A stretch of DNA of 64,000 nt from Chitinophaga pinensis (GCA_945869825.1 CAMBQF010000001.1:18372-82371), one strand, 5' to 3'; numbered from the stretch's first letter, positions 6,292-54,106 are shown. Numbers and translations are program-made. The notes: a model not told the origin generated them from the sequence alone.

Positions 6292-6587
6292 GTTTTGAGC
6301 TTTTAAAACGCACGAAAGTACCTATTAACTAACAACTTAACAGCAAACAAAGTTTACCGCATTGTTAAGTTATTATTAATCAAACGCTTGTGTAAATTTA
6401 GTTTCCTGTTATGTTTCGGCATTGTTTGCAAAACAATGCCTTTCTGTCACAATCACTATAAACAAGGCTTAAAACATTGATTCTGTTTAATTAATAGGTT
6501 GTGCGGTTAAGATGCAAATGCAGTAACCAAGAGCAAAGTGCATTAGCATTTTTAAAGATTAGTTTAACATTGTGAATTAGAACGCAA

Positions 6588-7262
6588 CTATTTGGCTTGT
6601 TTGTTAAACAGATACCTAAGGCCAATGCTATACATATAAGTGTTTGGAAAAGGGAAAGCGGTATGCGTAAATATGTTGCTTGCTGTTGCATGCTTATCAA
6701 TAAAAGCGTAGGTAAAAGCATAGGTAAATTTAAAATCGGCTTTAAAGTTGTTTCCTATTTTATAATCTAAACCAATACCAGAAAACACATCCATATGCCA
6801 AGCTTTGTTTGTAAATAAATACATACGGCCGCGGCTCATATCATTATCAAAGGCATCAAACTTAGCAACAACCGTATTGCACAAAAGAGTAGGCATTAAA
6901 CCAATTTGCAGATAGGGCCTTATTTTGCCCTTTAAAAAAGAAAATTTGTAAGCAACAGGTATAGCCAGGTAGTTTGTTTTTGTATCGGAATACGGGGCTT
7001 GCACACCAGATTCGCCTTCTTCAGCAAAGCGGTACCCCTTTTTTAAATACAAAACAGAAGCAGCAATACTACCGTGCTTTTTAAAATTATACTGATAGCT
7101 TATGCCTTGCTGAAGACCTGTTAGCTTTTTATAATATTGATTTAGGCCCGATTTTAAAAATGAAAATGTGTTTATACCCGCCTCAAGGCCCAACTCATAT
7201 TTTTGCGCTGTGGCAAACAAACAACTAATTGTAAATAAGAATATCAGGGCCATTTTTTTCAT
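6588..7262 (-). CDS. outer-membrane beta-barrel protein (porin-like, hypothetical)
   Basis: Signal peptide MKKMALIFLFTISCLFATAQ; alternating aromatic/hydrophilic beta-strand pattern. Confidence 0.45.
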   Translation of the reverse strand: MKKMALIFLFTISCLFATAQKYELGLEAGINTFSFLKSGLNQYYKKLTGLQQGISYQYNFKKHGSIAASVLYLKKGYRFAEEGESGVQAPYSDTKTNYLAIPVAYKFSFLKGKIRPYLQIGLMPTLLCNTVVAKFDAFDNDMSRGRMYLFTNKAWHMDVFSGIGLDYKIGNNFKADFKFTYAFTYAFIDKHATASNIFTHTAFPFPNTYMYSIGLRYLFNKQAK

Positions 7263-7561
7263 GCCGAAATATCAAAATAATTAAATCAAACACATATTGT
7301 TACTGATTATCGTTTTATCAAAACCGTATTATTAATTTGTAAATATTTTTTGATTGTAGTAAAAGTGCTATAAATAAAGAAAAGTAAAGATAATTCAGCC
7401 ATCTGTCGGTCAAAAAAAAAGTAGCACTACATTGTTAAAATGTAAATCCAATATCATCTTATTTTTAATTCATCACATTCATATAAAACATAAATAGCGA
7501 TGTTTATTAATTACAATACATTAGCTTAACAATAGTGTTATTATTAACTTCGTTTAGATAA

Positions 7562-15610: not shown

Positions 15611-15696
15611 GAAGCGCTTACGCACATTCTGTGCGTGTAGTCCTTAGTCCGTATACTACGGATATTCCTGTATTAAGGCAACAAATACAGGCTATC

Positions 15697-17877
15697 ATGA
15701 AAAATCAATTCAAAATTCAGAATGCAAAATGCATAATTGTGCTTGCAATGGCTATTTCAAACTTTGCTATTGCGCAAACGCCGATGAGTAAAACAATCAG
15801 CGACTCGGTAATAGTAGCGGCTACGCGTACCGATGGTAAACAGGGTGTGGCCTATACCCAGGTGAGTAAAGAGGATTTGAAGAAGCAAAACCTTGGGCAG
15901 GATATTCCGGTATTGCTAAACCTAACCCCATCGGTGGTGGTAAGCTCTGATGCAGGTAATGGCGTTGGCTACACAGGCATACGCATACGCGGCAGCGATG
16001 CTACCCGTATAAATGTTACCGTAAATGGTATACCTATGAACGATGCCGAAAGCCATGGTTTGTTTTGGGTTAACATGCCCGATCTTGCATCATCAGTAAA
16101 CTCTATACAAATACAACGCGGGGCGGGCACCTCTACCAATGGGGCGGGGGCTTTTGGTGCCAGTATAAACATACAAAGCAATGTGCTGAATGCAGAACCG
16201 TATGCAGAGGTTAACTCATCGGCCGGGTCGTTCAACACGTTTAAAAATACGGTAATGGTGGGCTCGGGACTTGTTGGTGGCAAATTTACTTTTGATGCAA
16301 GGCTTTCTAAAATAACATCAGACGGGTTTGTAGACCGTGCCGCATCAGACTTAAAATCATTCTTTGTATCAGGAGGATATTATGGCACAAAGACGATTAT
16401 AAGGGCTAATGTGTTTTCGGGCAAAGAACGTACGTACCAGTCGTGGTATGGCATACCCGAAGCGGCGTTGGATACCAACCGCACCTACAACTACTACACC
16501 TATGCCAACCAAACCGATAACTACCAGCAAGACCATTACCAGCTTATTGGCTCGCACAGTATGAACAACAACTGGAACCTCAACCTGGCGCTGCACTATA
16601 CCCGGGGCAAAGGCTATTATGAAGAGTACAGAGGGCAGGATGATTTTGCCAACTACGGCTTGCCCAATTTTCAACTTTCGCAAGATACCATTCCGCCTAT
16701 AACTGTAAGCACAACAGACCTTGTGCGCCAACGCTGGTTAGATAACCATTTTTACGGGCTTACCTACTCTGTAAACTACAAAAGCTACAACCGCTTAAGC
16801 TTTATTTTAGGCGGGGGAGCAAACCAATACCGTGGAGCCCATTATGGCAATATTATCTGGATGCAATATGCCGGCAGCATTCCTAAAGATTACCGTTATT
16901 ATGATAACGATGCAGTTAAAACTGACATTAATGTATATGGCAAAGCCAACTACCATTTTGGCGCGGGCATTAATGCTTTTATCGATTTACAATACCGCCA
17001 CGTAGGCTACTCATTTTTAGGGTTTGATAATAACCTGCAAAATGTGCAGCAAGATGTAAACCTTAACTTTTTTAATCCTAAGGCAGGCATTAACGTGGAG
17101 CTGCCAAGCGATCAGCAGTTATACCTATCAGCAAGCGTAGCGCACCGCGAACCCACGCGCGATGATTTTACCCAAAGCACACCTGCCAGCAGGCCTAAGG
17201 CAGAGCGGATGATAGATACCGAACTGGGTTATAAAAAGCATTGGAAAAACACTATGGTTGGAGCAAACGGTTATTTTATGTATTACCAAAACCAGCTGGT
17301 ATTAACAGGGAGAATTAATGATGTTGGCGCATATATACGCAGCAACATAGACCAAAGCTACCGCGCTGGTATAGAGCTGGAGGGAGCTGTAAACATTGGC
17401 AAAAAAGTGAAGCTTGCAGGTAACTTTACCTTTAGTCAGAACAAGGTGATAGACTTTGCCGAATATATTGACGATTACGACAATGGTGGGCAGGTGGTTA
17501 ACCGTTACAAAAGTACCGATATATCATTCTCGCCAAACATGGTGGGGGCGGCAACCCTTAGCTACGAGCCTGTAAAAAAGCTTGTATTTAGTTTGATTAA
17601 TAAATATGTTAGTCGCCAATACCTTGATAATACGAGCAACAAGGCACGGTCATTAAACCCTTATACCACGCAAGACTTACGCATAAATTACAACTTTAGC
17701 GCAGGTTCAGCAAAAGACATTTCGCTAATATTATCAGTAAACAACCTGCTGAATGCTAAATATGAGCCTAATGGCTATACGTTTAGCTATATATATGGAG
17801 GGCAACAAACCACAGAAAACTACTACTACCCGCAAGCGGGCATAAACGTAATGGGTGGCATAGGCGTAAGGTTTTAG
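15697..17877 (+). CDS. TonB-dependent outer-membrane receptor (riboswitch-controlled; probable thiamine/precursor uptake)
   Basis: Preferred start MKNQFKIQNAKCIIVLAMAISNFAIAQ (signal peptide); plug-like N-terminal region, beta-barrel, C-terminal GIGVRF. Confidence 0.8.
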   Translation: MKNQFKIQNAKCIIVLAMAISNFAIAQTPMSKTISDSVIVAATRTDGKQGVAYTQVSKEDLKKQNLGQDIPVLLNLTPSVVVSSDAGNGVGYTGIRIRGSDATRINVTVNGIPMNDAESHGLFWVNMPDLASSVNSIQIQRGAGTSTNGAGAFGASINIQSNVLNAEPYAEVNSSAGSFNTFKNTVMVGSGLVGGKFTFDARLSKITSDGFVDRAASDLKSFFVSGGYYGTKTIIRANVFSGKERTYQSWYGIPEAALDTNRTYNYYTYANQTDNYQQDHYQLIGSHSMNNNWNLNLALHYTRGKGYYEEYRGQDDFANYGLPNFQLSQDTIPPITVSTTDLVRQRWLDNHFYGLTYSVNYKSYNRLSFILGGGANQYRGAHYGNIIWMQYAGSIPKDYRYYDNDAVKTDINVYGKANYHFGAGINAFIDLQYRHVGYSFLGFDNNLQNVQQDVNLNFFNPKAGINVELPSDQQLYLSASVAHREPTRDDFTQSTPASRPKAERMIDTELGYKKHWKNTMVGANGYFMYYQNQLVLTGRINDVGAYIRSNIDQSYRAGIELEGAVNIGKKVKLAGNFTFSQNKVIDFAEYIDDYDNGGQVVNRYKSTDISFSPNMVGAATLSYEPVKKLVFSLINKYVSRQYLDNTSNKARSLNPYTTQDLRINYNFSAGSAKDISLILSVNNLLNAKYEPNGYTFSYIYGGQQTTENYYYPQAGINVMGGIGVRF

Positions 17878-18471: not shown

Positions 18472-18573
18472 GTTTAGAGCGGGACATGTAAAAATATCCT
18501 GTAAAAAGTAACCTAAGTGCTGTTTTTGCGGCTGCAAGGTGCGTATATTTGTATATATAGTAAATAGATAAAC

Positions 18574-18963
18574 ATGAAGCACATAATATTTTCGTTGCTG
18601 GTAATAGCGGCGGTAGCCCTGGGTGGATGCAGGTATGACAAAGCGGATGAACTATACGTGGCCACGCCATGCGACACTTCGGTTTCAATCACATTTTCAG
18701 CATATGTTACGGGTGTTGTAAACGATAATTGCATTAGTTGCCATAGCAACGCCAATAATGTGAGCCTTGGCGGCAGCATAAACCTTGAAGGTTATGATAA
18801 CCTGATAAACTACGTTAATGACGGCCCTGACGGCGGTAGCTTTATGGGTGCCATTACCCACAACCCTAACTACCTTGCTATGCCCCAAAACGAAGCCAAG
18901 TTGGATGACTGTACCATTTTAAAATTGCAGAAGTGGGTTAACAACGGCGCACAGAACAACTAA
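18574..18963 (+). CDS. small lipoprotein with single CXXCH heme-binding motif (putative c-type cytochrome-like)
   Basis: Lipoprotein signal LGGC; NDNCISCHSN motif. Confidence 0.4.
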   Translation: MKHIIFSLLVIAAVALGGCRYDKADELYVATPCDTSVSITFSAYVTGVVNDNCISCHSNANNVSLGGSINLEGYDNLINYVNDGPDGGSFMGAITHNPNYLAMPQNEAKLDDCTILKLQKWVNNGAQNN

Positions 18964-18967
18964 AACG

Positions 18968-19900
18968 ATGAAGAAGATTTTACTATCAATATTTACCGGC
19001 ATTGCCAGTGTTGCTATAGCCCAACCGCCTGCCGACACAACGAATAAAGCTGTTGATTTTGACTCGTTGTTAAACATGGTTGAAGATAGCCAGCCAAAGG
19101 AAAAGCCATTGGTAACAGCTACGTTCAAATCGTCAAGAATAATAAACGGACACTCTGTTGAGTTGGCAAAACCAAAGCATTTAGAGTTCCGTCTATCTCA
19201 CCGTTTTAGCAGCGTGCGCGATGGGCTGGATGGTTTTTTTGGCCTTGATAATGCCAGCACCCGTATAGCCTTGGAATATGGCATAAACGACTTTATGATG
19301 GTTGGCCTGGGTCGTAGTGGTGCCTATAGCAAATCTGTAGATGCATTTTACAAAGCCAAGGTGTTGCGCCAACGCGAAGGCGGTATGCCTATAACGCTTA
19401 CCTTGTTTGGATCGGCGGTGATAAGTACCATAAAAAATAATATCCCTGACTACCGTTTCGACTCGAGGCTAACCTATACCGTACAGGCTATAATTGCATC
19501 AAAAATAAGCGAGAAGCTATCGTTGCAACTATCGCCAACCCTGGTACACCGCAACCTGGTACCCACGGCAGTTTACCCTAACGATTTGATTGCTATTGGT
19601 GTTGGGGGCCGCTTAAAACTATCGCGCAGAATATCATTAAATGCTGAGTACTTTTACCGTGTATTATCATCAGACTACCGCAAGGTAGACCCATACCATA
19701 ACGCACTTGCTATAGGGTTTGATTTTGATACCGGCGGCCATATTTTCTCGCTGCACTTTACCAACTCGCGTCCGCAGATAGAGCCCGGCTTTATTGGCGA
19801 AACCAGCTACAACTGGCTTAAGGGCGACTTTAGCTTTGGCTTTAACATTACCCGCCAGTTTTATTTGGGTAAAAAGAGCAAAGCGCCGCAAGGCTGGTAG
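18968..19900 (+). CDS. outer-membrane beta-barrel protein (hypothetical), co-oriented 5 nt downstream of heme-motif lipoprotein
   Basis: Signal peptide MKKILLSIFTGIASVAIAQ; beta-strand periodicity. Confidence 0.45.
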   Translation: MKKILLSIFTGIASVAIAQPPADTTNKAVDFDSLLNMVEDSQPKEKPLVTATFKSSRIINGHSVELAKPKHLEFRLSHRFSSVRDGLDGFFGLDNASTRIALEYGINDFMMVGLGRSGAYSKSVDAFYKAKVLRQREGGMPITLTLFGSAVISTIKNNIPDYRFDSRLTYTVQAIIASKISEKLSLQLSPTLVHRNLVPTAVYPNDLIAIGVGGRLKLSRRISLNAEYFYRVLSSDYRKVDPYHNALAIGFDFDTGGHIFSLHFTNSRPQIEPGFIGETSYNWLKGDFSFGFNITRQFYLGKKSKAPQGW

Positions 19901-29518: not shown

Positions 29519-30394
29519 TTATAGCAATTTTGATACCGCTTGTTTAAGGCTTGCGCGCCAATGCGGAATTTCAATGCCCAGTGCCGCCTTTACCTTACCT
29601 TTATTCAACAGGCTGTAAGCAGGCCTTGCCGATGCGGTAGGGTATTCTTTGGTAAGTATGGGCATAATTTTGCATTTAAGCCCCGCCAGTTCTACAATAG
29701 CCTGGGCAAAATCGTACCAGCTGGTTACCCCCTCGTTACTAAAGTGGTAAATGCCTGTAGGCACTTTTTGTTTATTGTTTAAGGCTGTTATTAGGGTAAA
29801 AATGGCTTTTACCAAATCATCGGCCAGGGTGGGTGTACCTACCTGGTCGTACACCATGTTCAGGGTTTCGCGCTCGGCACCCAAACGTAAAATAGTTTTT
29901 AAAAAATTGTGCCCGTGCACCGAGTATAACCACGAGGTGCGGAACACATACCCATCGCAACCCGAAAGCATCAGGGCCTCTTCGCCCTCGCATTTGGTAA
30001 GGCCATACACCCCCAGCGGATTGGTAAAGTCAGTCTCTACATACGGTACGCTGGCAATGCCATCAAAAACATAATCAGTAGAAACCTGGATAAACTTTGT
30101 TTTGTGCATTTTGCACTCCATAGCCATTAGCTCTACAGCCTTAGCATTTATCAGGCGGGCCAGGGCAGGCTCGCTCTCTGCTTTATCTACGGCAGTGTAG
30201 GCCGAGCAGTTAATAAGGTATTTAGGGGCATGCAGGTTAAAAAAGTATTTCAGGTCGGCAGGTTTGGTAATATCCAAATCGGCCACATCAGTAAACACAA
30301 AATTAAAGCCGGGCATGGTGTGTGCCAGTTCTTGCATTACTGTTCCTAATTGCCCATTGGCGCCTGTTACCGCTATTGTTTTTGCTTTTGCCAT
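29519..30394 (-). CDS. rfbD: dTDP-4-dehydrorhamnose reductase
   Basis: TGANGQLG NAD-binding motif, RmlD-like length and YxxxK. Confidence 0.8.
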   Translation of the reverse strand: MAKAKTIAVTGANGQLGTVMQELAHTMPGFNFVFTDVADLDITKPADLKYFFNLHAPKYLINCSAYTAVDKAESEPALARLINAKAVELMAMECKMHKTKFIQVSTDYVFDGIASVPYVETDFTNPLGVYGLTKCEGEEALMLSGCDGYVFRTSWLYSVHGHNFLKTILRLGAERETLNMVYDQVGTPTLADDLVKAIFTLITALNNKQKVPTGIYHFSNEGVTSWYDFAQAIVELAGLKCKIMPILTKEYPTASARPAYSLLNKGKVKAALGIEIPHWRASLKQAVSKLL

Positions 30395-30788
30395 GTCCTT
30401 TTTTAACCAAATATGGGGGCAAAAATAGTGTTTTTACCCCACTACAATGTGGCAAAAAAACTACTACCTGTTTAACGCGCCAAATAATATGCTTAGTATT
30501 TCATAGCTTACCGTCTTCACTATCTGCTGTACAATTTTATACTTATTGCAAAGCAACAGCCTTGATAGTTCTACTTGTCTCATGCTTTTTTCTGCAGCTC
30601 TAAACCTTATCGTGGTTTATAGTATAACGTATTGGGTTTTCTGATGTGTTGTTTTCACTAATTGTAATTGTTGGCCAACGGAGTACTTATCATTATTTAG
30701 TTGGCTAAATAAATATTTTATATATTCTTAAAACATTTTTAGAGAGCATCTGTTTAACAAAACGTACACAAACTTTAAACAAAAAATT

Positions 30789-31508
30789 ATGGAACATTTA
30801 AAAATTGCAAGCGATAACTATGTCGCATTTACGTTCTTTATCGGAACAATGGCTATGATGGCAGCCTCAGTATTCTTCTTTTTTGAGTTAAACAACACTT
30901 CTCAAAAGTGGCGAACATCGGTGTTGGTATCAGGCCTTATTACATTTATTGCAGCGGTGCATTACTATTACATGAGGGGCTATAACTTGGAAACAGGCGA
31001 GTCTCCTACATTTTTCCGCTATGTTGACTGGATTTTAACTGTTCCGTTAATGTGTGTAGAGTTTTATTTAATTACCAAAAAGGCAGGTGCTAAAATTCAG
31101 TTGCTTTGGAAATTAATATTTGCCTCGTTAGTGATGCTGGTGACAGGTTACTTTGGAGAAACTATTGACAGAGGCAATAGTGTACTTTGGGGTGTAATTT
31201 CTGGTGCTGCTTATTTTTACATTGCTTACCTGATATGGTTTGGTGAAGTTGCCAAATTGGCTCAAACTGCAGGAACACAGGTAGCTAAAGCTACACGCAT
31301 ACTTGCGTGGTTTGTACTAGTTGGCTGGGCAATTTATCCTTTAGGTTATATTTTAGGAACTCCAGGTGGCTTGTTTGGTATGCAATTAGTTAGCGACCCT
31401 GCAGCTGCATCTCATGCAATGGATATTGTATATAACATTGCCGACGCTATCAATAAAATTGGTTTTGGACTGGTAATTTATGCCTTGAGCAGAAGCTCTG
31501 AAGATTAA
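30789..31508 (+). CDS. microbial (type I) rhodopsin, proteorhodopsin/xanthorhodopsin-like proton pump (DTE motif)
   Basis: 7TM; helix C RYVDWILTVPLMCVE (Asp-Thr...Glu at BR85/89/96 equivalents); helix G retinal Lys in DAINKIGFGL. Confidence 0.85.
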   Translation: MEHLKIASDNYVAFTFFIGTMAMMAASVFFFFELNNTSQKWRTSVLVSGLITFIAAVHYYYMRGYNLETGESPTFFRYVDWILTVPLMCVEFYLITKKAGAKIQLLWKLIFASLVMLVTGYFGETIDRGNSVLWGVISGAAYFYIAYLIWFGEVAKLAQTAGTQVAKATRILAWFVLVGWAIYPLGYILGTPGGLFGMQLVSDPAAASHAMDIVYNIADAINKIGFGLVIYALSRSSED

Positions 31509-31592
31509 TATTACTAAGAACAAGAAAAAAACGGGGTGGTATATTTAATAATATGTCACCCTTTTTTATTGCTTTAACCTAAAAGGCATTCC

Positions 31593-33602
31593 ATGAAAAT
31601 ATCAGCAAAAAATCCAGCCTTGCCATTTGATTTTATTTTTATAGGATTAGGTGCTGCAAATTGCTTGTTGCTTTTAAGGCTGCATGATAATGGCTTGCTT
31701 ACAGGTAAAACCATTGCTATTGTTGAACCGGATAGTAAATCAGCTAATGATAGGACTTTTTGTTTTTGGGCTACAGAAGATGATGTAACAAACTTACATG
31801 TAAAACCTTTGGTTAGCAACAGTTGGGACTTTGTAGAAATTGGTGGTATTGCCAAGCAACAAATTAATCCACTGCGCTATTTTCATGTAAAAGGTATCGA
31901 TATTTATAACCAAACAAAAAGTATTCTTAGTGTTAATAATGTTACATTTTTTAACACTCTTTTTAAAGAAAACCCGGAAGTAAAATCAACGTATTATGAA
32001 GTTAGACTGGCTAACGAAACACTTTATGGTTATAAAGTATTTGATAGTCGCCCGCCAATTTTTTTGCCCCCGAAAAAAAACCAAAGCCATTTATACCAAT
32101 CTTTTTATGGCTTAAAAATAAAACTCGCTACAAAAACATTTGATACTTCAGTAATGGTAATGATGGATTTTAACGTCCCTCAAAACAATTTCACACAGTT
32201 TGTTTATGTGTTGCCTTTTTCTGAAGATACGGCATTAATAGAGTTAACACGCTTTGGTACTGAAAAATTGACACAACAGGAAGCTACGCCAATTCTTAAT
32301 GAATACATAGATAGACTGGGAGTTTCTTTTGATATTTTAGAGGAAGAAAGAGGGGTAATACCTATGTCATCATCCGCTTTAAAAAGTGAAGATTTTGGCA
32401 CAAATTGGATAAACATGGGGGCTAGGGCAAATATGATTAAATGCTCTACAGGATATGCTTTTCATGCAATGGCAGAAGATGCCATAACGCAAATGGAAGC
32501 CATTAAAAATAATGTGTTTCCAAAAAGAAAAATGAAAGGGCAAAGGTTTGCTTTTTACGACCGGTTGCTATTAAAAATATTAGATGAAAGTCCTGAGTAC
32601 GGCAAAGTAATTTTTGAAACACTATTTAAAAAAGTACCTATTGTAAAAGTGTTACGTTTTTTAGGAGAGAAAACAAGCCTATCAGAAGAAATTATAATTT
32701 TTTCAAAATTGCCCAAGCGTATATTTATTACAAGCGCTGCAAAAGATATTTTGCAACAGTTTTATACTTTACCTGTGTTAGCGTTGCCTTTTCTGTTCAC
32801 TATTATTACCCTCTTTCTAACGCTTGTCAATCTTCAATATATTTCTTGGGGCATTTTAGGCTTGGGGTTTTTATCGGTTGGCCTGTCTCATGGCGCATTA
32901 GACCACCTAACAGCAAAACCAATCATCAATAAAAAACAACTACTAGGTTTTATTATACGGTATTTGTTTAAGGCCATTGTTTTAGGCCTGGTTTGGTTAT
33001 TTTACCCTGACTTGGCGCTACTTCTATTTATAGCTTACTCTGCCTGGCATTTTGGCCAAGCCGATTTTAAAGAATGGCAATTAAAACAAGGGTGGCAATC
33101 TTTATGCTGGGGCACTATTGCTTTAATGATTATTTTATTCTCTCATTTTGAAGAATTAAATTTAATTCTTTTACAAATACCCAATTTAGAATTTGTAAAC
33201 ACGTTAAAGAATCTTTCTGATAATATAATATGGGCTTTGAATATCCTTTTTATTGTAGGAGGAATTTTATTAGCTGTAATAAATAAATCAAAGCACATAC
33301 TTTTTACTTTAACATATTTATTGCTCTGTAGTATGTTGCCTTTACTTCTTTCATTTGGTATCTATTTTGTTGGCCAACACAGTTTACATGGTTGGCGTCA
33401 TCTTTCTTTAGGTTTGAATGAATCTTCATCACGATTATGGCTAAAGTCTCTCCCTTTTAGTATTGGGGGCGCATTGGTTATTTTATATTTTTTGCTTCTC
33501 TCAAGCTCAAATTATGTAGGTATTTTTTTTATCATTTTATCTTGTTTAAGCATACCCCATGTCTTTAGTATGCATCATTTTTATTCTAAGTTAAAACTAT
33601 AA
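31593..33602 (+). CDS. fusion protein: lycopene beta-cyclase (CrtY-type, FAD) N-terminal domain + Brp/Blh beta-carotene 15,15'-dioxygenase C-terminal membrane domain
   Basis: N-term FIGLGAANCLLLLRL dinucleotide fold and ~380 aa CrtY-like region; C-term polytopic region with Blh His motifs (GLSHGALDHL, WHFGQADF, GQHSLHGWRH, LSIPHVFSMHH). Confidence 0.7.
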   Translation: MKISAKNPALPFDFIFIGLGAANCLLLLRLHDNGLLTGKTIAIVEPDSKSANDRTFCFWATEDDVTNLHVKPLVSNSWDFVEIGGIAKQQINPLRYFHVKGIDIYNQTKSILSVNNVTFFNTLFKENPEVKSTYYEVRLANETLYGYKVFDSRPPIFLPPKKNQSHLYQSFYGLKIKLATKTFDTSVMVMMDFNVPQNNFTQFVYVLPFSEDTALIELTRFGTEKLTQQEATPILNEYIDRLGVSFDILEEERGVIPMSSSALKSEDFGTNWINMGARANMIKCSTGYAFHAMAEDAITQMEAIKNNVFPKRKMKGQRFAFYDRLLLKILDESPEYGKVIFETLFKKVPIVKVLRFLGEKTSLSEEIIIFSKLPKRIFITSAAKDILQQFYTLPVLALPFLFTIITLFLTLVNLQYISWGILGLGFLSVGLSHGALDHLTAKPIINKKQLLGFIIRYLFKAIVLGLVWLFYPDLALLLFIAYSAWHFGQADFKEWQLKQGWQSLCWGTIALMIILFSHFEELNLILLQIPNLEFVNTLKNLSDNIIWALNILFIVGGILLAVINKSKHILFTLTYLLLCSMLPLLLSFGIYFVGQHSLHGWRHLSLGLNESSSRLWLKSLPFSIGGALVILYFLLLSSSNYVGIFFIILSCLSIPHVFSMHHFYSKLKL

Positions 33603-34034
33603 TTGGCCAAGATAATTTTATATAACCGTTTTGTGGTTAAAGCATTGCCTTAATACACCCCGTGTATTTGTATTAAAAATGTTGGACTAAAAATGTGTAT
33701 ATTGCTTGTAACAATGGTAGTTTTAGCCATAGAGCTGTATATGTCTTTTTATTCTTTTACTTTTATTAGTAAACAGCCCCGATTTTTTAATTTTAAAAGA
33801 GTAGAATTGGCGGTGAATTCGGTAGACATTTTAAAACGAGTACTTTATCTTACAGCCACATGGGTTTTGACATAATTCAATGTAAGATTACCAAAAAACC
33901 GATAAATGAGGTTTTACCCACAATAAAACTTTATTTCCAACGTTAGCAGGCATTACAGCGCGCCCGCTTGACAAAGGGGGTATGGATGTTGTATATTCGC
34001 ACTCTTTTAATTTTTACTTATACTCAGATACTTA

Positions 34035-35084
34035 ATGAAATTATCACAATTTAAGTTTCGCGTTCCGCCCGAGTTAGTTGCTGAGCGTCCGGCAAAAAAC
34101 CGTGAAGATGCCCGTTTGATGGTTATTGACCGTAAAACAAAAAAAATAGAACACAAAAAATTTAGCGACGTTTTAGATTATTTTGAAGACGGCGACTGCA
34201 TGATTGTTAACAACACCCGTGTGTTCCCCGCCCGCCTGTATGGCAATAAAGAAAAAACCGGTGCCCAGATAGAGGTTTTCCTTTTACGCGAACTTAACCG
34301 CGAAAGCCGCCTTTGGGATGTTTTGGTTGACCCTGCCCGTAAAATACGTATTGGCAACAAGCTGTATTTTGGCGATAACGACGAGTTGGTGGCCGAGGTA
34401 ATTGACAACACCACATCGCGCGGTCGTACCCTTCGTTTTTTGTTTGATGGCAGCTACGAAGAGTTTAAGCAAACCGTATACGAACTGGGCGAAACCCCAA
34501 TACCTAAATTTATAAAGCGCACCCCCGATGCTGCCGATGCCGAGCGTTACCAAACGGTATTTGCCAAGCACGAAGGTGCCGTTGCCGCCCCAACAGCGGG
34601 CATGCACTTTAGCAAAACGCTAATGAAGCGTTTAGAGATTAAAGGCGTAAACTTTGCCGAGATTACTTTGCACGTGGGCTTAGGTACCTTCCGCACGGTA
34701 GAGGTGGAAGACCTTACCAAACATAAGGTAGACTCTGAAGAGATGGAGATTGACGAAACGGCTGTTAAAATAGTTAACAAAGCCCGCGACGAGCGTAAGC
34801 GTGTCTGTGCTGTAGGTACTACTACCATGCGTGCCATAGAAACATCGGTAACTACCAATGGCCACCTAAAACCGTACAAAGGCTGGACAAATAAATTTAT
34901 TCTTCCGCCGCACGATTTTCAGGTTGCCAACTGTATGATAACCAACTTCCACATGCCACAAACGGTATTGGTAATGATGGTTTCTGCCTTTGCAGGCCAC
35001 GACTTTTTAATGGAAGCCTACAAGCAAGCTGTAAAAGAGAAGTACCGCTTTTTTACCTATGGCGATGCGATGTTGATTTTGTAA
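34035..35084 (+). CDS. queA: S-adenosylmethionine:tRNA ribosyltransferase-isomerase
   Basis: QueA-like sequence throughout ([15 protein letters not shown]...). Confidence 0.9.
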
Positions 35085-35822: not shown

Positions 35823-35910
35823 TACTTACTTATAATAAACCCAAAAGGCGGCCATTGCTGACCGCCCGCTGGGCATTGTTGCCTATATATTGATTACTCG
35901 CTTTCTGTGG

Positions 35911-53545: not shown

Positions 53546-54106
53546 TTATTTTCTCTCAGGTAGAATTCGCTTAATTTTTTCAATATTGTCGGTAGATATA
53601 ATTGTTCCATCCATGAACTCCAATTCAATTCCTGTTATTTGCATATGAGTTATTGAGCTATTATACCAAATGCATTCCCAAGTAGTATCATATCCATAAA
53701 TAGCTCCGGGTTTAATTGGACCAGTAACCCTGACTATTTTATCTGTTTCATTACCTATTTCACTAGATACCATATCTTCTACTGCATTATACGGAGCAAT
53801 TGTAAATCTTGCATATTTAATTGTTTTATCAGATTTATTCTTCCAAATAATGTTTGCATCAACTCCTCCTGCTGAATTTGGTCGAGATGTAAAATATTTT
53901 ATGATGAAAATACTTGATGCTATTTTATCTGCATCTTCATTCTTTTCCTGTTCTACGATTTTTTTTAATTCATTGTAAATTGAATCATGTGTCGCGATAG
54001 AATCGGCTTTAGCTTTTAGATTATCTTCTTCTTTTGGTTTATCGTTTGGTTGGCATGCTATAAGCGTTAGAAATATAATAGAAAAAAATTGGGATAATTT
54101 TTTCAT
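53546..54106 (-). CDS. hypothetical lipoprotein (AT-rich gene)
   Basis: Signal + LIAC lipobox; markedly AT-rich codon usage relative to neighbours. Confidence 0.35.
   Translation of the reverse strand: MKKLSQFFSIIFLTLIACQPNDKPKEEDNLKAKADSIATHDSIYNELKKIVEQEKNEDADKIASSIFIIKYFTSRPNSAGGVDANIIWKNKSDKTIKYARFTIAPYNAVEDMVSSEIGNETDKIVRVTGPIKPGAIYGYDTTWECIWYNSSITHMQITGIELEFMDGTIISTDNIEKIKRILPERK

Follow-up and report, generated by a model that had tools for sequence, protein, structure and literature searches.

Layout of the rfbD-queA locus

We analyzed a contiguous stretch of 64,000 nucleotides (nt), referred to below as the window. Between rfbD and queA it carries two genes on the plus strand, a rhodopsin gene and a gene with lycopene-cyclase and Blh domains. 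This is the order given in a preliminary description of the locus, and our ORF calls agree with it. The features below were delimited by comparison with a related genome in which the rfbD-queA junction is empty (L094), a closer sister lineage (L100/L104), and an outgroup (L090).

29519-30394, minus strand: rfbD/rmlD (dTDP-4-dehydrorhamnose reductase), left flank (PF04321, E=2.6e-93; TIGR01214, 300.8 bits against a cut-off of 224)
30395-30465, no strand: ancestral rfbD-proximal piece of the divergent intergenic region, aligning to the L094 empty-site spacer and to L100/L104
30466-33920, no strand: putative inserted island of ~3.46 kb, absent from L094, at the same site in L100/L104, low in GC
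30789-31508, plus strand: proteorhodopsin-type rhodopsin, 239 aa (PF01036, E=2.8e-42)
31533-31569, plus strand: terminator-like hairpin with a 13-bp stem and a T-run, in the gap between the rhodopsin and fusion genes (terminator scan)
31593-33602, plus strand: CrtY-like/Blh fusion protein, 669 aa (PF05834, E=7.3e-46; PF15461, E=6.2e-28)
31629-32720, plus strand: N-terminal CrtY-like lycopene cyclase domain of the fusion, aa 13-376 (PF05834)
32868-33569, plus strand: C-terminal polytopic Blh/Brp beta-carotene 15,15'-dioxygenase domain of the fusion, aa 426-659 (PF15461)
33603-33920, no strand: island-specific non-coding tail; the L104 alignment stops after 33677
33921-34034, plus strand: ancestral queA-proximal promoter region, common to L094, L104, and L090
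34035-35084, plus strand: queA, right flank (PF02547, E=1.7e-134; NF001140, 453 bits)

The spacers on either side of the two genes (394 and 432 nt) both rank in the top four of the window's intergenic gaps by length. The preliminary description had counted them, at ~390 and ~430 nt, as long AT-rich parts of the island. The lengths hold, but the outer parts are ancestral and lie outside the insert. The first 71 nt beside rfbD and the last 114 nt beside queA are common to the empty site, and the insert was therefore placed at about 30466-33920. On the rfbD side, the alignment with L094 and L100/L104 runs to about 30462-30465 and includes a conserved hairpin at 30415-30440 (terminator/hairpin scan). 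The right border is fuzzy by ~60 nt (33857-33920). On the queA side, a promoter-like match, TTGACA-18-TATATT, was found at 33968-33997 (score 11/12). An Rfam scan of the spacers at E<=1 returned nothing apart from a spurious lncRNA match, and none of the loci looked at had a Bacteroidota -7 box (TAnnTTTG) in the 200 nt preceding the opsin gene. A 60-aa ORF at 33693-33875 that gene calling on Logan contigs had picked up was rejected as a gene; it has no Pfam match, is not conserved in L104, and yielded no homologue outside its own lineage.

The rhodopsin and its fused partner gene

The rhodopsin matched PF01036 over residues 13-233 (145.2 bits against a cut-off of 24.6) and contains seven hydrophobic segments. 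Its key residues are H58, R77, D80, T84, M88, E91, G135, D219, and K223. They were assigned by alignment with the BR and GPR sequences: D80/T84/E91 correspond to BR D85/T89/D96 and GPR D97/T101/E108, M88 to GPR L105, and K223, in the helix-G segment ADAINKIGFGL, to the Schiff-base lysine (BR K216, GPR K231). H58 aligns with the H75 partner of GPR, R77 and D219 with the counterion-complex Arg and Asp, and G135 with the fenestration position in TM5 (BR W138, XR G156). The helix-C D/T/E triad, the Met at the tuning position, and the Schiff-base Lys in DAINKIGFGL all align as stated in the preliminary description, and the HMM search bears out its identification of the protein.

When PDB entries were ranked by E value, NM-R1 (9JOV/9JOU) came first at 2e-91, with an identity of roughly 70%. 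Other PRs followed at about 1e-52 to 1e-44, GR/XR at 6e-28 to 3e-25, and NaR and BR at about 1e-11. This similarity ranking supports assignment to the Bacteroidota proteorhodopsin clade and not to the xanthorhodopsin clade. The earlier label "proteorhodopsin/xanthorhodopsin type" is thus retained for its first half (NM-R1, 2e-91) and dropped for its second (3e-25). Judged from its residues, the rhodopsin would bind retinal at K223 and, in the light, pump protons outward with D80 as acceptor and E91 as donor, which would add to the proton-motive force. The Met at GPR position 105 would make it green-tuned. With a Gly at the fenestration position, it may, like NM-R1, also take up a hydroxylated carotenoid as antenna.

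The gene after the rhodopsin had been described as a carotenoid cyclase/Blh gene. Both domains are present, and they lie in one fused protein. The N-terminal half matched PF05834 (Lycopene_cycl) with 157.4 bits against a cut-off of 23.4 over model positions 1-373 of 380. Residues from about 421 to 659 matched PF15461 (98.6 against a cut-off of 28) and TIGR03753 (121.6 against 95.25), and the hydrophobic segments of the protein fall in aa 389-661. The cyclase half scored below both NCBIfam thresholds (TIGR01790, 91.9 against 209.5; the CrtY equivalog TIGR01789, 57.7 against 215.2) and is therefore referred to as a lycopene-cyclase-family domain rather than a CrtY equivalog. In 17 homologues, the dinucleotide-binding motif D13...G18-L-G20-A-A-N23 (GLGAAN) is invariant, as are H433, H486, H518, H596, H603, and H656, candidate ligands of the catalytic iron. 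The dN/dS of the fusion gene is about 0.13, indicating purifying selection.

The fused architecture is common in Bacteroidota data, with 1435 matches. The best 120 of these all have both domains and, except for two apparently truncated ones, are ~660-750 aa long. One match, from a Pedobacter sp., is named [quoted passage not shown] by NCBI. Among the 150 best cluster representatives at 50% identity, most of the ~645-700-aa matches keep the cyclase domain, which suggests that selection maintains it for a catalytic function linked to Blh.

From its domains, the fusion protein probably makes the retinal cofactor of the rhodopsin. The N-terminal half, as a flavin-type CrtY-like cyclase, would turn host lycopene into beta-carotene, and the C-terminal half, as a membrane-embedded Blh dioxygenase, would split beta-carotene into two retinals. 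Alternatively, the N-terminal domain could serve to bind or deliver carotenoids, or it could be another flavoenzyme acting on them, with the fusion performing the Blh step alone and a host CrtY making beta-carotene. The sub-threshold NCBIfam scores would suit this alternative. No solved relative was found by sequence, and our literature search found no paper describing or testing a CrtY-Blh fusion. The AlphaFold model of the fusion (pLDDT 64, pTM 0.36) retrieved generic FAD monooxygenases and geranylgeranyl reductases in Foldseek at TM below 0.33, and this low-confidence model gives weak support at best. Against the alternative stand the almost full-length Lycopene_cycl match (E=7e-46), the invariance of D-x4-G-x-G-A-A-N and many other positions among fusions that are just 51-89% identical, and the retention of the cyclase domain among the cluster representatives. 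We consider it unlikely that the domain is something other than a lycopene beta-cyclase, and we prefer the two-step reading.

No crtE, crtB, or crtI gene was found in the insert or elsewhere in the 64-kb window. The cassette is thus not self-sufficient and depends on host lycopene, and the preliminary term "complete photoheterotrophy module" does not apply.

The hairpin between the two genes folds at -19.1 kcal/mol (z -2.6). All seven of the cassette variants examined have a corresponding hairpin with a U-tract, although their spacers are not alignable, and z falls to as low as -6.9. By its structure, this element would act as a terminator that probably ends most transcripts after the rhodopsin gene. 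Termination at this point would give much structural protein and little enzyme. A broader proposal, which we put forward tentatively and at somewhat less than even confidence, is that the fusion is bifunctional and channels substrate from lycopene to retinal. The opsin, this enzyme, and a conserved terminator fixing the ratio of the two would then make up a minimal two-gene "plug-and-play" cassette able to make any lycopene-producing Bacteroidota phototrophic and to integrate without mobility genes of its own.

Composition, empty site, and origin of the island

The island had been described as visibly more AT-rich than its flanks, and segment GC and GC3 checks confirmed this. The GC content of 30466-33920 is 0.338, the lowest of any 3.5-kb segment in the 64-kb window. 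Non-overlapping 3455-nt segments have a mean of 0.436 (sd 0.020, minimum 0.372), which puts the island ~4.9 sd below the other 3.5-kb segments. GC3 is 0.343 in the rhodopsin gene and 0.263 in the fusion gene, against a mean of 0.460 (sd 0.070) over 62 window ORFs and against 0.498 and 0.496 in the flanking rfbD and queA. After correction for amino-acid composition, deficits of -0.123 (rhodopsin) and -0.180 (fusion) remain, and the sole window ORF that exceeds the cassette genes in deviation is 53546-54106. In four other host lineages, the cassette genes are host-like in GC3 (0.22/0.16 against 0.19 in L084, 0.37/0.36 against 0.35 in L085, 0.32/0.33 against 0.34 in L095, and 0.22/0.26 against 0.24 in L097), showing that low GC is not intrinsic to them.

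The empty rfbD-queA junction anticipated in the preliminary description is present in the related genome L094 (QueA 98% identical at the aa level, flanks 79-91% nt). There, the two genes are adjacent across a 235-bp spacer that lacks the cassette. At the insert position L094 has 55 unrelated bases, and homology ends at about 30465 and 33921. In the closer sister lineage L100/L104, whose flanks are 92-96% identical at the nt level, the cassette lies at the same junctions and has similarly low GC3. Between the window and L100, dS is 0.28-0.38 for the cassette and 0.17-0.39 for the flanks. These values are equal: the cassette has co-diverged with its flanks. Composition, the empty site, and the same-site cassette in L100/L104 together support the horizontal acquisition suggested earlier.

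The reading we favor is that a two-gene phototrophy cassette from a lower-GC Bacteroidota donor was inserted horizontally between rfbD and queA, in the region holding their divergent promoters. The gain would have occurred in the common ancestor of the window species and L100/L104, after the L094 lineage had split off, with vertical inheritance since then. The direction of the event, gain and not loss, draws on composition and the three-taxon pattern. The opposite direction would have the cassette ancestral to the whole group and deleted in the L094 lineage, its low GC stemming from a cause other than foreign origin, such as gene-specific codon preference or membrane-protein amino-acid composition. 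With three related lineages, a single loss is as parsimonious as a single gain, and the further outgroups cannot polarize the event, because the rfbD-queA junction is not conserved in L090, which has an ABC transporter upstream of queA, or in L092. Neither an insertion scar nor a mobility gene was detected at the borders. Against a loss, the GC3 deficit persists after amino-acid correction, the cassette genes match their hosts in the four other lineages, and a long-resident cassette would have ameliorated. Moreover, the deviation is larger in the enzyme gene, whose expression is presumably low, than in the rhodopsin gene, the reverse of expression-linked codon bias. Loss in L094 is thus rather improbable. 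What may be a remnant of the L094 hairpin, at the right end of the island in L104, was marginal (99 of 2000 shuffles), would fit gain or loss, and was not used as evidence.

ORF calls and Pfam searches revealed no integrase or transposase, and no tRNA was found in the window. At the island borders, no significant terminal repeat or target-site duplication was detected by repeat search and by Smith-Waterman comparison with shuffles, and the short repeat families at the junctions were at chance level. Two candidate border repeats were rejected by Smith-Waterman score: the likeness of GTTTTTACCCCAC...CAAT (left) to GGTTTTACCCACAAT (right), matched or beaten by 320 of 2000 shuffles, and GGCAAAAA(G)ACT, matched or beaten by 1050 of 2000. 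A vector search of viral contigs, phage records, and plasmids yielded no close relatives of the cassette. Outside the lineage, the searches turned up no donor with more than 71% fusion identity or more than 82% rhodopsin nucleotide identity. The nearest outside cassette is that of L101-103 (fusion 71% aa, rhodopsin 81% nt).

The rhodopsin is 92-95% identical at the aa level across many lineages. We rejected this as a sign of recent transfer, because nucleotide identity stands at only about 80%, dS has reached saturation, and dN/dS lies near 0.02 (0.016-0.03 for the window gene); purifying selection accounts for the identity. A QueA scan of genome contigs returned 80 loci at <=79% identity, none with rfbD or a rhodopsin gene within 10 kb. 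These loci are too distant for synteny, and differing cassette contexts across deep lineages are therefore not by themselves evidence of mobility.

Overall, a DTE proteorhodopsin and CrtY-like/Blh cassette gained horizontally at rfbD-queA is the best explanation of the locus, and we regard it as likely. As an example of phototrophy gained by horizontal transfer, it is clean but ordinary. That proteorhodopsin phototrophy exists and spreads laterally is already established, and the general picture is unchanged. The locus does provide a natural before/after set, with L094 empty, two diverged sister lineages occupied, borders defined within tens of bases, and no mobile-element machinery, which can be used for studying cassette integration and amelioration. 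It also draws attention to a very widespread but, as far as our search found, unpublished CrtY-like/Blh fusion and to a structurally conserved putative terminator between opsin and enzyme. If the predicted activity of the fusion is true, a compact one-gene lycopene-to-retinal module could become possible for optogenetic and synthetic-biology hosts.

Comparison with known systems

NM-R1 of Nonlabens marinus S1-08 is an experimentally shown outward H+ pump; it is pentameric, and a TM5 glycine opens the fenestration through which it binds myxol/zeaxanthin (bioRxiv 10.1101/2024.11.08.622755). The window rhodopsin has the DTE motif, the His partner, and the tuning-site Met in common with it, as well as the Gly in TM5. 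It differs in a loop before helix G that is 7 residues longer (GLFGMQLVSDPAAASHA region) and in its host, an uncultured and apparently non-marine Bacteroidota lineage. It is highly improbable that the protein acts as a sensor, moves a different ion, or pumps in the opposite direction: some database sources do name close homologues "sensory rhodopsin," but these names are automatic, whereas the full DTE motif and His partner are those of GPR and NM-R1, similarity to the proven pump NM-R1 is ~70%, no transducer gene is adjacent at the locus, and NQ/NTQ-type pumps align far more poorly (about 1e-11).

The antenna rhodopsins xanthorhodopsin and Kin4B8 are likewise DTE-type pumps with a Gly at XR G156/BR W138. 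Similarity to them is nevertheless weak (XR 3ddl, E=2.8e-25; Kin4B8 7ytb, 1.1e-22), and the window protein falls outside their clade. With GPR (eBAC31A08), it shares D97/T101/E108, H75, and K231 as D80/T84/E91, H58, and K223. Protein identity to GPR is 44%, the tuning residue is Met and not Leu/Gln, and the fenestration position holds Gly where GPR has a bulky residue.

In marine Flavobacteriia, the opsin is accompanied by a stand-alone blh, whereas here the partner is fused. The six-gene PR photosystem of marine Proteobacteria (PR-crtEIBY-blh) resembles the window in linking an opsin with retinal-synthesis genes and in its lateral spread, a linkage and transfer reported by Frigaard 2006, McCarren & DeLong 2007, and Martinez 2007. 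The window cassette has two genes only, with crtY and blh fused and without crtE/I/B. Compared with the known Blh/Brp (PF15461, TIGR03753) and CrtY (PF05834) proteins, its domains are covalently joined, the CrtY-like domain preceding Blh.

Layout and base composition of the rfbD-queA island

The gap between rfbD and queA spans exactly 30395-34034 and contains two plus-strand open reading frames (ORFs), which are separated from each other by 84 nt and flanked by spacers of 394 and 432 nt. The position, the two genes and the long spacers agree with the preliminary description. The features of the locus are:

29519-30394, minus strand: rfbD (PF04321, E=2.6e-93; TIGR01214 above cut-off)
30789-31508, plus strand: rhodopsin, 239 amino acids (aa) (Bac_rhodopsin PF01036, E=2.8e-42)
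31533-31569, between the rhodopsin and fusion genes: terminator-like hairpin of 13 bp, then a T-run
31593-33602, plus strand: cyclase/Blh fusion, 669 aa (Lycopene_cycl and Blh/BCD domains)
34035-35084, plus strand: queA (PF02547, E=1.7e-134)

On the rfbD-leader side, 20-45 nt upstream of the rfbD start codon, the hairpin GGGGGCAAAAATAGTGTTTTTACCCC (window 30415-30440) is kept in the window, in the cassette-free related locus L094 (9785-9810) and in the cassette-bearing sister loci L100 and L104.

The AT-richness noted earlier was borne out. The 3455-nt core has a GC of 0.338, compared with a mean of 0.436 (sd 0.020, minimum 0.372) for nonoverlapping 3455-nt segments of the rest of the window. 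GC3 is 0.343 for the rhodopsin gene and 0.263 for the fusion gene vs. a mean of 0.460 (sd 0.070) across 62 window ORFs, and deficits of 0.123 and 0.180, respectively, were left after correction for amino acid composition. The two-gene cassette has a host-like GC3 in each of four other host lineages, so the low GC of the window cassette is not a gene-intrinsic property.

The sole window ORF with a more extreme GC3 deviation than the cassette genes is 53546-54106 (minus strand, 186 aa; GC 0.305; GC3 0.188, 0.24 under expectation), the most deviant in the window. It has no Pfam match and very AT-rich spacers on both sides, and could likewise be of foreign origin. A second low-GC block (6292-7561) contains an OMP beta-barrel ORF (6588-7262; GC 0.359, GC3 0.344) between spacers of 296 nt and 299 nt (GC 0.32 and 0.23). 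Separately, a TPP riboswitch (RF00059; 15523-15620, plus strand; 66 bits vs. a gathering score of 54.3) directly precedes the gene for a TonB-dependent receptor (15631-17877), suggesting thiamine-regulated outer-membrane uptake.

Rhodopsin and cyclase/Blh fusion

The PF01036 match identified the first gene product as a rhodopsin. In an alignment to bacteriorhodopsin (BR) and green proteorhodopsin (GPR), D80/T84/E91 correspond to BR D85/T89/D96 and GPR D97/T101/E108, M88 aligns with GPR L105 (the spectral tuning site), H58 with GPR H75 and G135 with BR W138. The counterion complex also includes R77 and D219, and K223 is the Schiff-base lysine; the previously named D/T/E motif, methionine and lysine were all recovered. 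Among solved structures, 9JOV/9JOU were the best matches by far (E=2e-91), followed by other proteorhodopsins (4e-52 to 1e-44), Gloeobacter rhodopsin and xanthorhodopsin (XR) (6e-28 to 3e-25), and sodium pumps and BR (~1e-11). Both structures are of NM-R1 from Nonlabens marinus, which carries a DTE motif and pumps protons outward in the light (bioRxiv 10.1101/2024.11.08.622755). This ranking, together with the motif alignment, places the window rhodopsin in the Bacteroidota proteorhodopsin clade. A proton pump of proteorhodopsin or XR type had been proposed; by similarity, the proteorhodopsin type holds and the XR type does not. The protein very likely absorbs green light and pumps H+ outward; with methionine at the tuning site, an absorption maximum of ~520-535 nm would be expected. 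NM-R1 takes myxol or zeaxanthin via a fenestration that needs a TM5 glycine, equivalent to XR Gly156 and BR Trp138 (bioRxiv 10.1101/2024.11.08.622755), and G135 is the residue predicted to permit a carotenoid antenna in the window rhodopsin.

The best 120 of ~8000 database matches to the rhodopsin were all at least 89% identical. Recent transfer was rejected as the reason for this identity in favour of constraint, as the same homologues share only ~80% of their nucleotides with the window gene, with saturated dS and a dN/dS of 0.016-0.03. Between the window and the loci of other cassette hosts (L084, L085, L095, L097, and L101), rhodopsin protein identity is 92-95%, compared with only 35-71% for the fusion. 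The pair of genes differs markedly in evolutionary rate, with dN/dS of ~0.02 for the rhodopsin and ~0.13 for the fusion. Since the latter value recurred in every comparison, the fusion gene is functional, with no particular relaxation in the window lineage. In three marine contigs (L087, L088, and L089; TARA and others), a 92%-identical rhodopsin (L087 10001-10735) has neither a CrtY-Blh fusion nor blh within 10 kb, showing that the linkage is common but not universal.

The second gene had been described as a cyclase/Blh gene. Both domains are indeed present, and they reside in one fused protein. Residues 13-376 match Lycopene_cycl (E=7.3e-46) and residues 426-659 the Blh/BCD family (E=6.2e-28; TIGR03753 121.6 vs. 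a cut-off of 95.25). A dinucleotide-binding motif, DFxFIGLGAAN, lies in the N-terminal half, where many other positions are also invariant. With hydrophobic segments in residues 389-661, the C-terminal half is polytopic; six of its histidines are invariant (H433, H486, H518, H596, H603, and H656).

This architecture is common. A database search with the fusion gave 1435 matches; among the best 120 listed, both Pfam domains were present in 120/120, and the length was ~660-750 aa in all but two, which are apparently truncated. Their sources were Pedobacter, Crocinitomicaceae, Vicingaceae, and Flavobacteriales, and one match is named by NCBI 'Brp/Blh family beta-carotene 15,15'-monooxygenase/lycopene cyclase-like protein'. 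When the Blh half alone was searched against 1.84 billion cluster representatives, the best 150 matches were mostly 645-700-aa proteins matched at their C-terminus, with stand-alone proteins of 280-315 aa interleaved.

The cyclase half scored below the NCBIfam CrtY thresholds (91.9 vs. 209.5; 57.7 vs. 215.2), a sequence search found no solved relative, and the low-confidence AlphaFold model of the fusion (pLDDT 64) matched only generic FAD monooxygenase and geranylgeranyl-reductase folds. We therefore refer to it as a lycopene-cyclase-family domain rather than a proven CrtY. In the most likely mechanism, this half would turn lycopene into beta-carotene, and membrane cleavage of beta-carotene by the Blh half would yield retinal. 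The 64-kb window contains no crtE, crtB, crtI, or crtZ. Thus, the module called complete in the preliminary description combines an opsin with a putative retinal-synthesis gene but falls short of a full pathway and relies on host lycopene.

Gain versus loss of the cassette

The window species is rare in public data. QueA homologue identities fall from 98% to 91%, 87%, and then ≤80%, and the best species-representative genome has a QueA of 79%. The contig with the 98%-identical QueA is L094 (Logan SRR31616097). It keeps the order hflX, cytochrome c, 154-aa ORF, pheS, ppiase, and rfbD, and queA follows directly after a 235-bp spacer: the empty junction that was to be sought in relatives exists. 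Homology between L094 and the window ends on the left at ~30462-30465 and restarts on the right at 33921; at the insert site, L094 has 55 unrelated bases, including the hairpin CCCCCTCTTAGAGGGGG. Elsewhere in L094, a DUF5777 gene block (L094 3263-4641; window 18495-19876) is inverted and moved beside hflX, which indicates a rearrangement of ~5 kb between the two lineages.

The sister loci L100 (GCA_027483285.1) and L104 (JGI 3300042882, Ga0453127_0000065) are closer to the window in their flanks (92-96% nucleotide identity vs. 79-91% for L094). In both, the cassette sits at the same junctions as in the window and shares its low GC3 (0.32 and 0.23 vs. 0.45-0.54 in the flanks). Between the window and L100, dS of the cassette (0.28-0.38) is the same as that of the flanks (0.17-0.39). 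The shared junctions and equal dS show that the cassette was already in the common ancestor of the window, L100 and L104. A second small presence/absence difference from the sister lineage is a ParE-toxin gene with an 86-aa partner between ispD and an OMP gene (L104 14284-14822), where the window has only an 88-nt spacer (35823-35910).

A less likely alternative is that the cassette was lost in L094 rather than gained. The next relatives do not polarise the event, as their rfbD-queA junction is not conserved; L090 (QueA 91%) has an ABC transporter there. Homology between L090 and the window begins at 33912, which fits the right border of the insert. Taken together, the empty site, the presence in the sister lineage and the intrinsic-composition control favour a single gain from a lower-GC Bacteroidota donor, with amelioration still incomplete; the gain would fall between the branching of the L094 lineage and the separation of the window from L100. 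The earlier proposal of horizontal acquisition is thus favoured, with the insert narrowed to ~30466-33920 and no mobility signature: no integrase, transposase or tRNA was found, and no significant inverted or direct repeats were detected at the insert borders.

Searches outside the lineage revealed no homologues of the island-specific noncoding parts, and IMG/VR contigs, phage records and plasmids held no close cassette relatives. Any donor lies outside what has been sampled, since the nearest outside cassette (L101-103) has a fusion only 71% identical and a rhodopsin of 81% nucleotide identity. In other genomes, the cassette occurs in at least six distinct gene contexts; this carries little weight because the queA neighbourhood is equally unconserved at those distances.

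Probable inter-gene terminator, opsin leader and known systems

In six other cassette variants, the spacer equivalent to that between the rhodopsin and fusion genes (75-91 nt) is unalignable by sequence, and a strong hairpin followed by a U-tract was found in 6/6 (z-scores -2.6 to -6.9). The recurrence suggests selection for partial termination downstream of the opsin gene, which would plausibly keep the enzyme scarce relative to the opsin.

Upstream of the opsin gene, the motif CCGAAAAGCC-N(2-5)-AGAGTAGG occurs 22-42 nt before the rhodopsin start in three otherwise unalignable cassette lineages and nowhere else in 104 loci. This candidate leader or regulatory element has the following sites (locus-internal coordinates):

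L085, 9959-9979
L086, 9959-9979
L095, 3119-3139
L096, 2977-2997
L097, 8172-8192
L098, 4064-4084
L099, 4122-4142

The window, L100 and L101 are without this motif and have in common TCTGTTTAA ~40 nt upstream of the rhodopsin start.

That opsin genes are linked to blh and crt genes and spread laterally is textbook proteorhodopsin biology; examples were reportedly described by Frigaard (2006), McCarren and DeLong (2007), Martinez (2007), and Gomez-Consarnau (2007). Structures are now available for Bacteroidota proteorhodopsins with a carotenoid fenestration (bioRxiv 10.1101/2024.11.08.622755). The searched literature contained no description of a bacterial CrtY-like/Blh fusion, here a widespread enzyme with a conserved probable terminator between the genes, and the rfbD-queA junction provides a well-resolved pair of empty and occupied sites.
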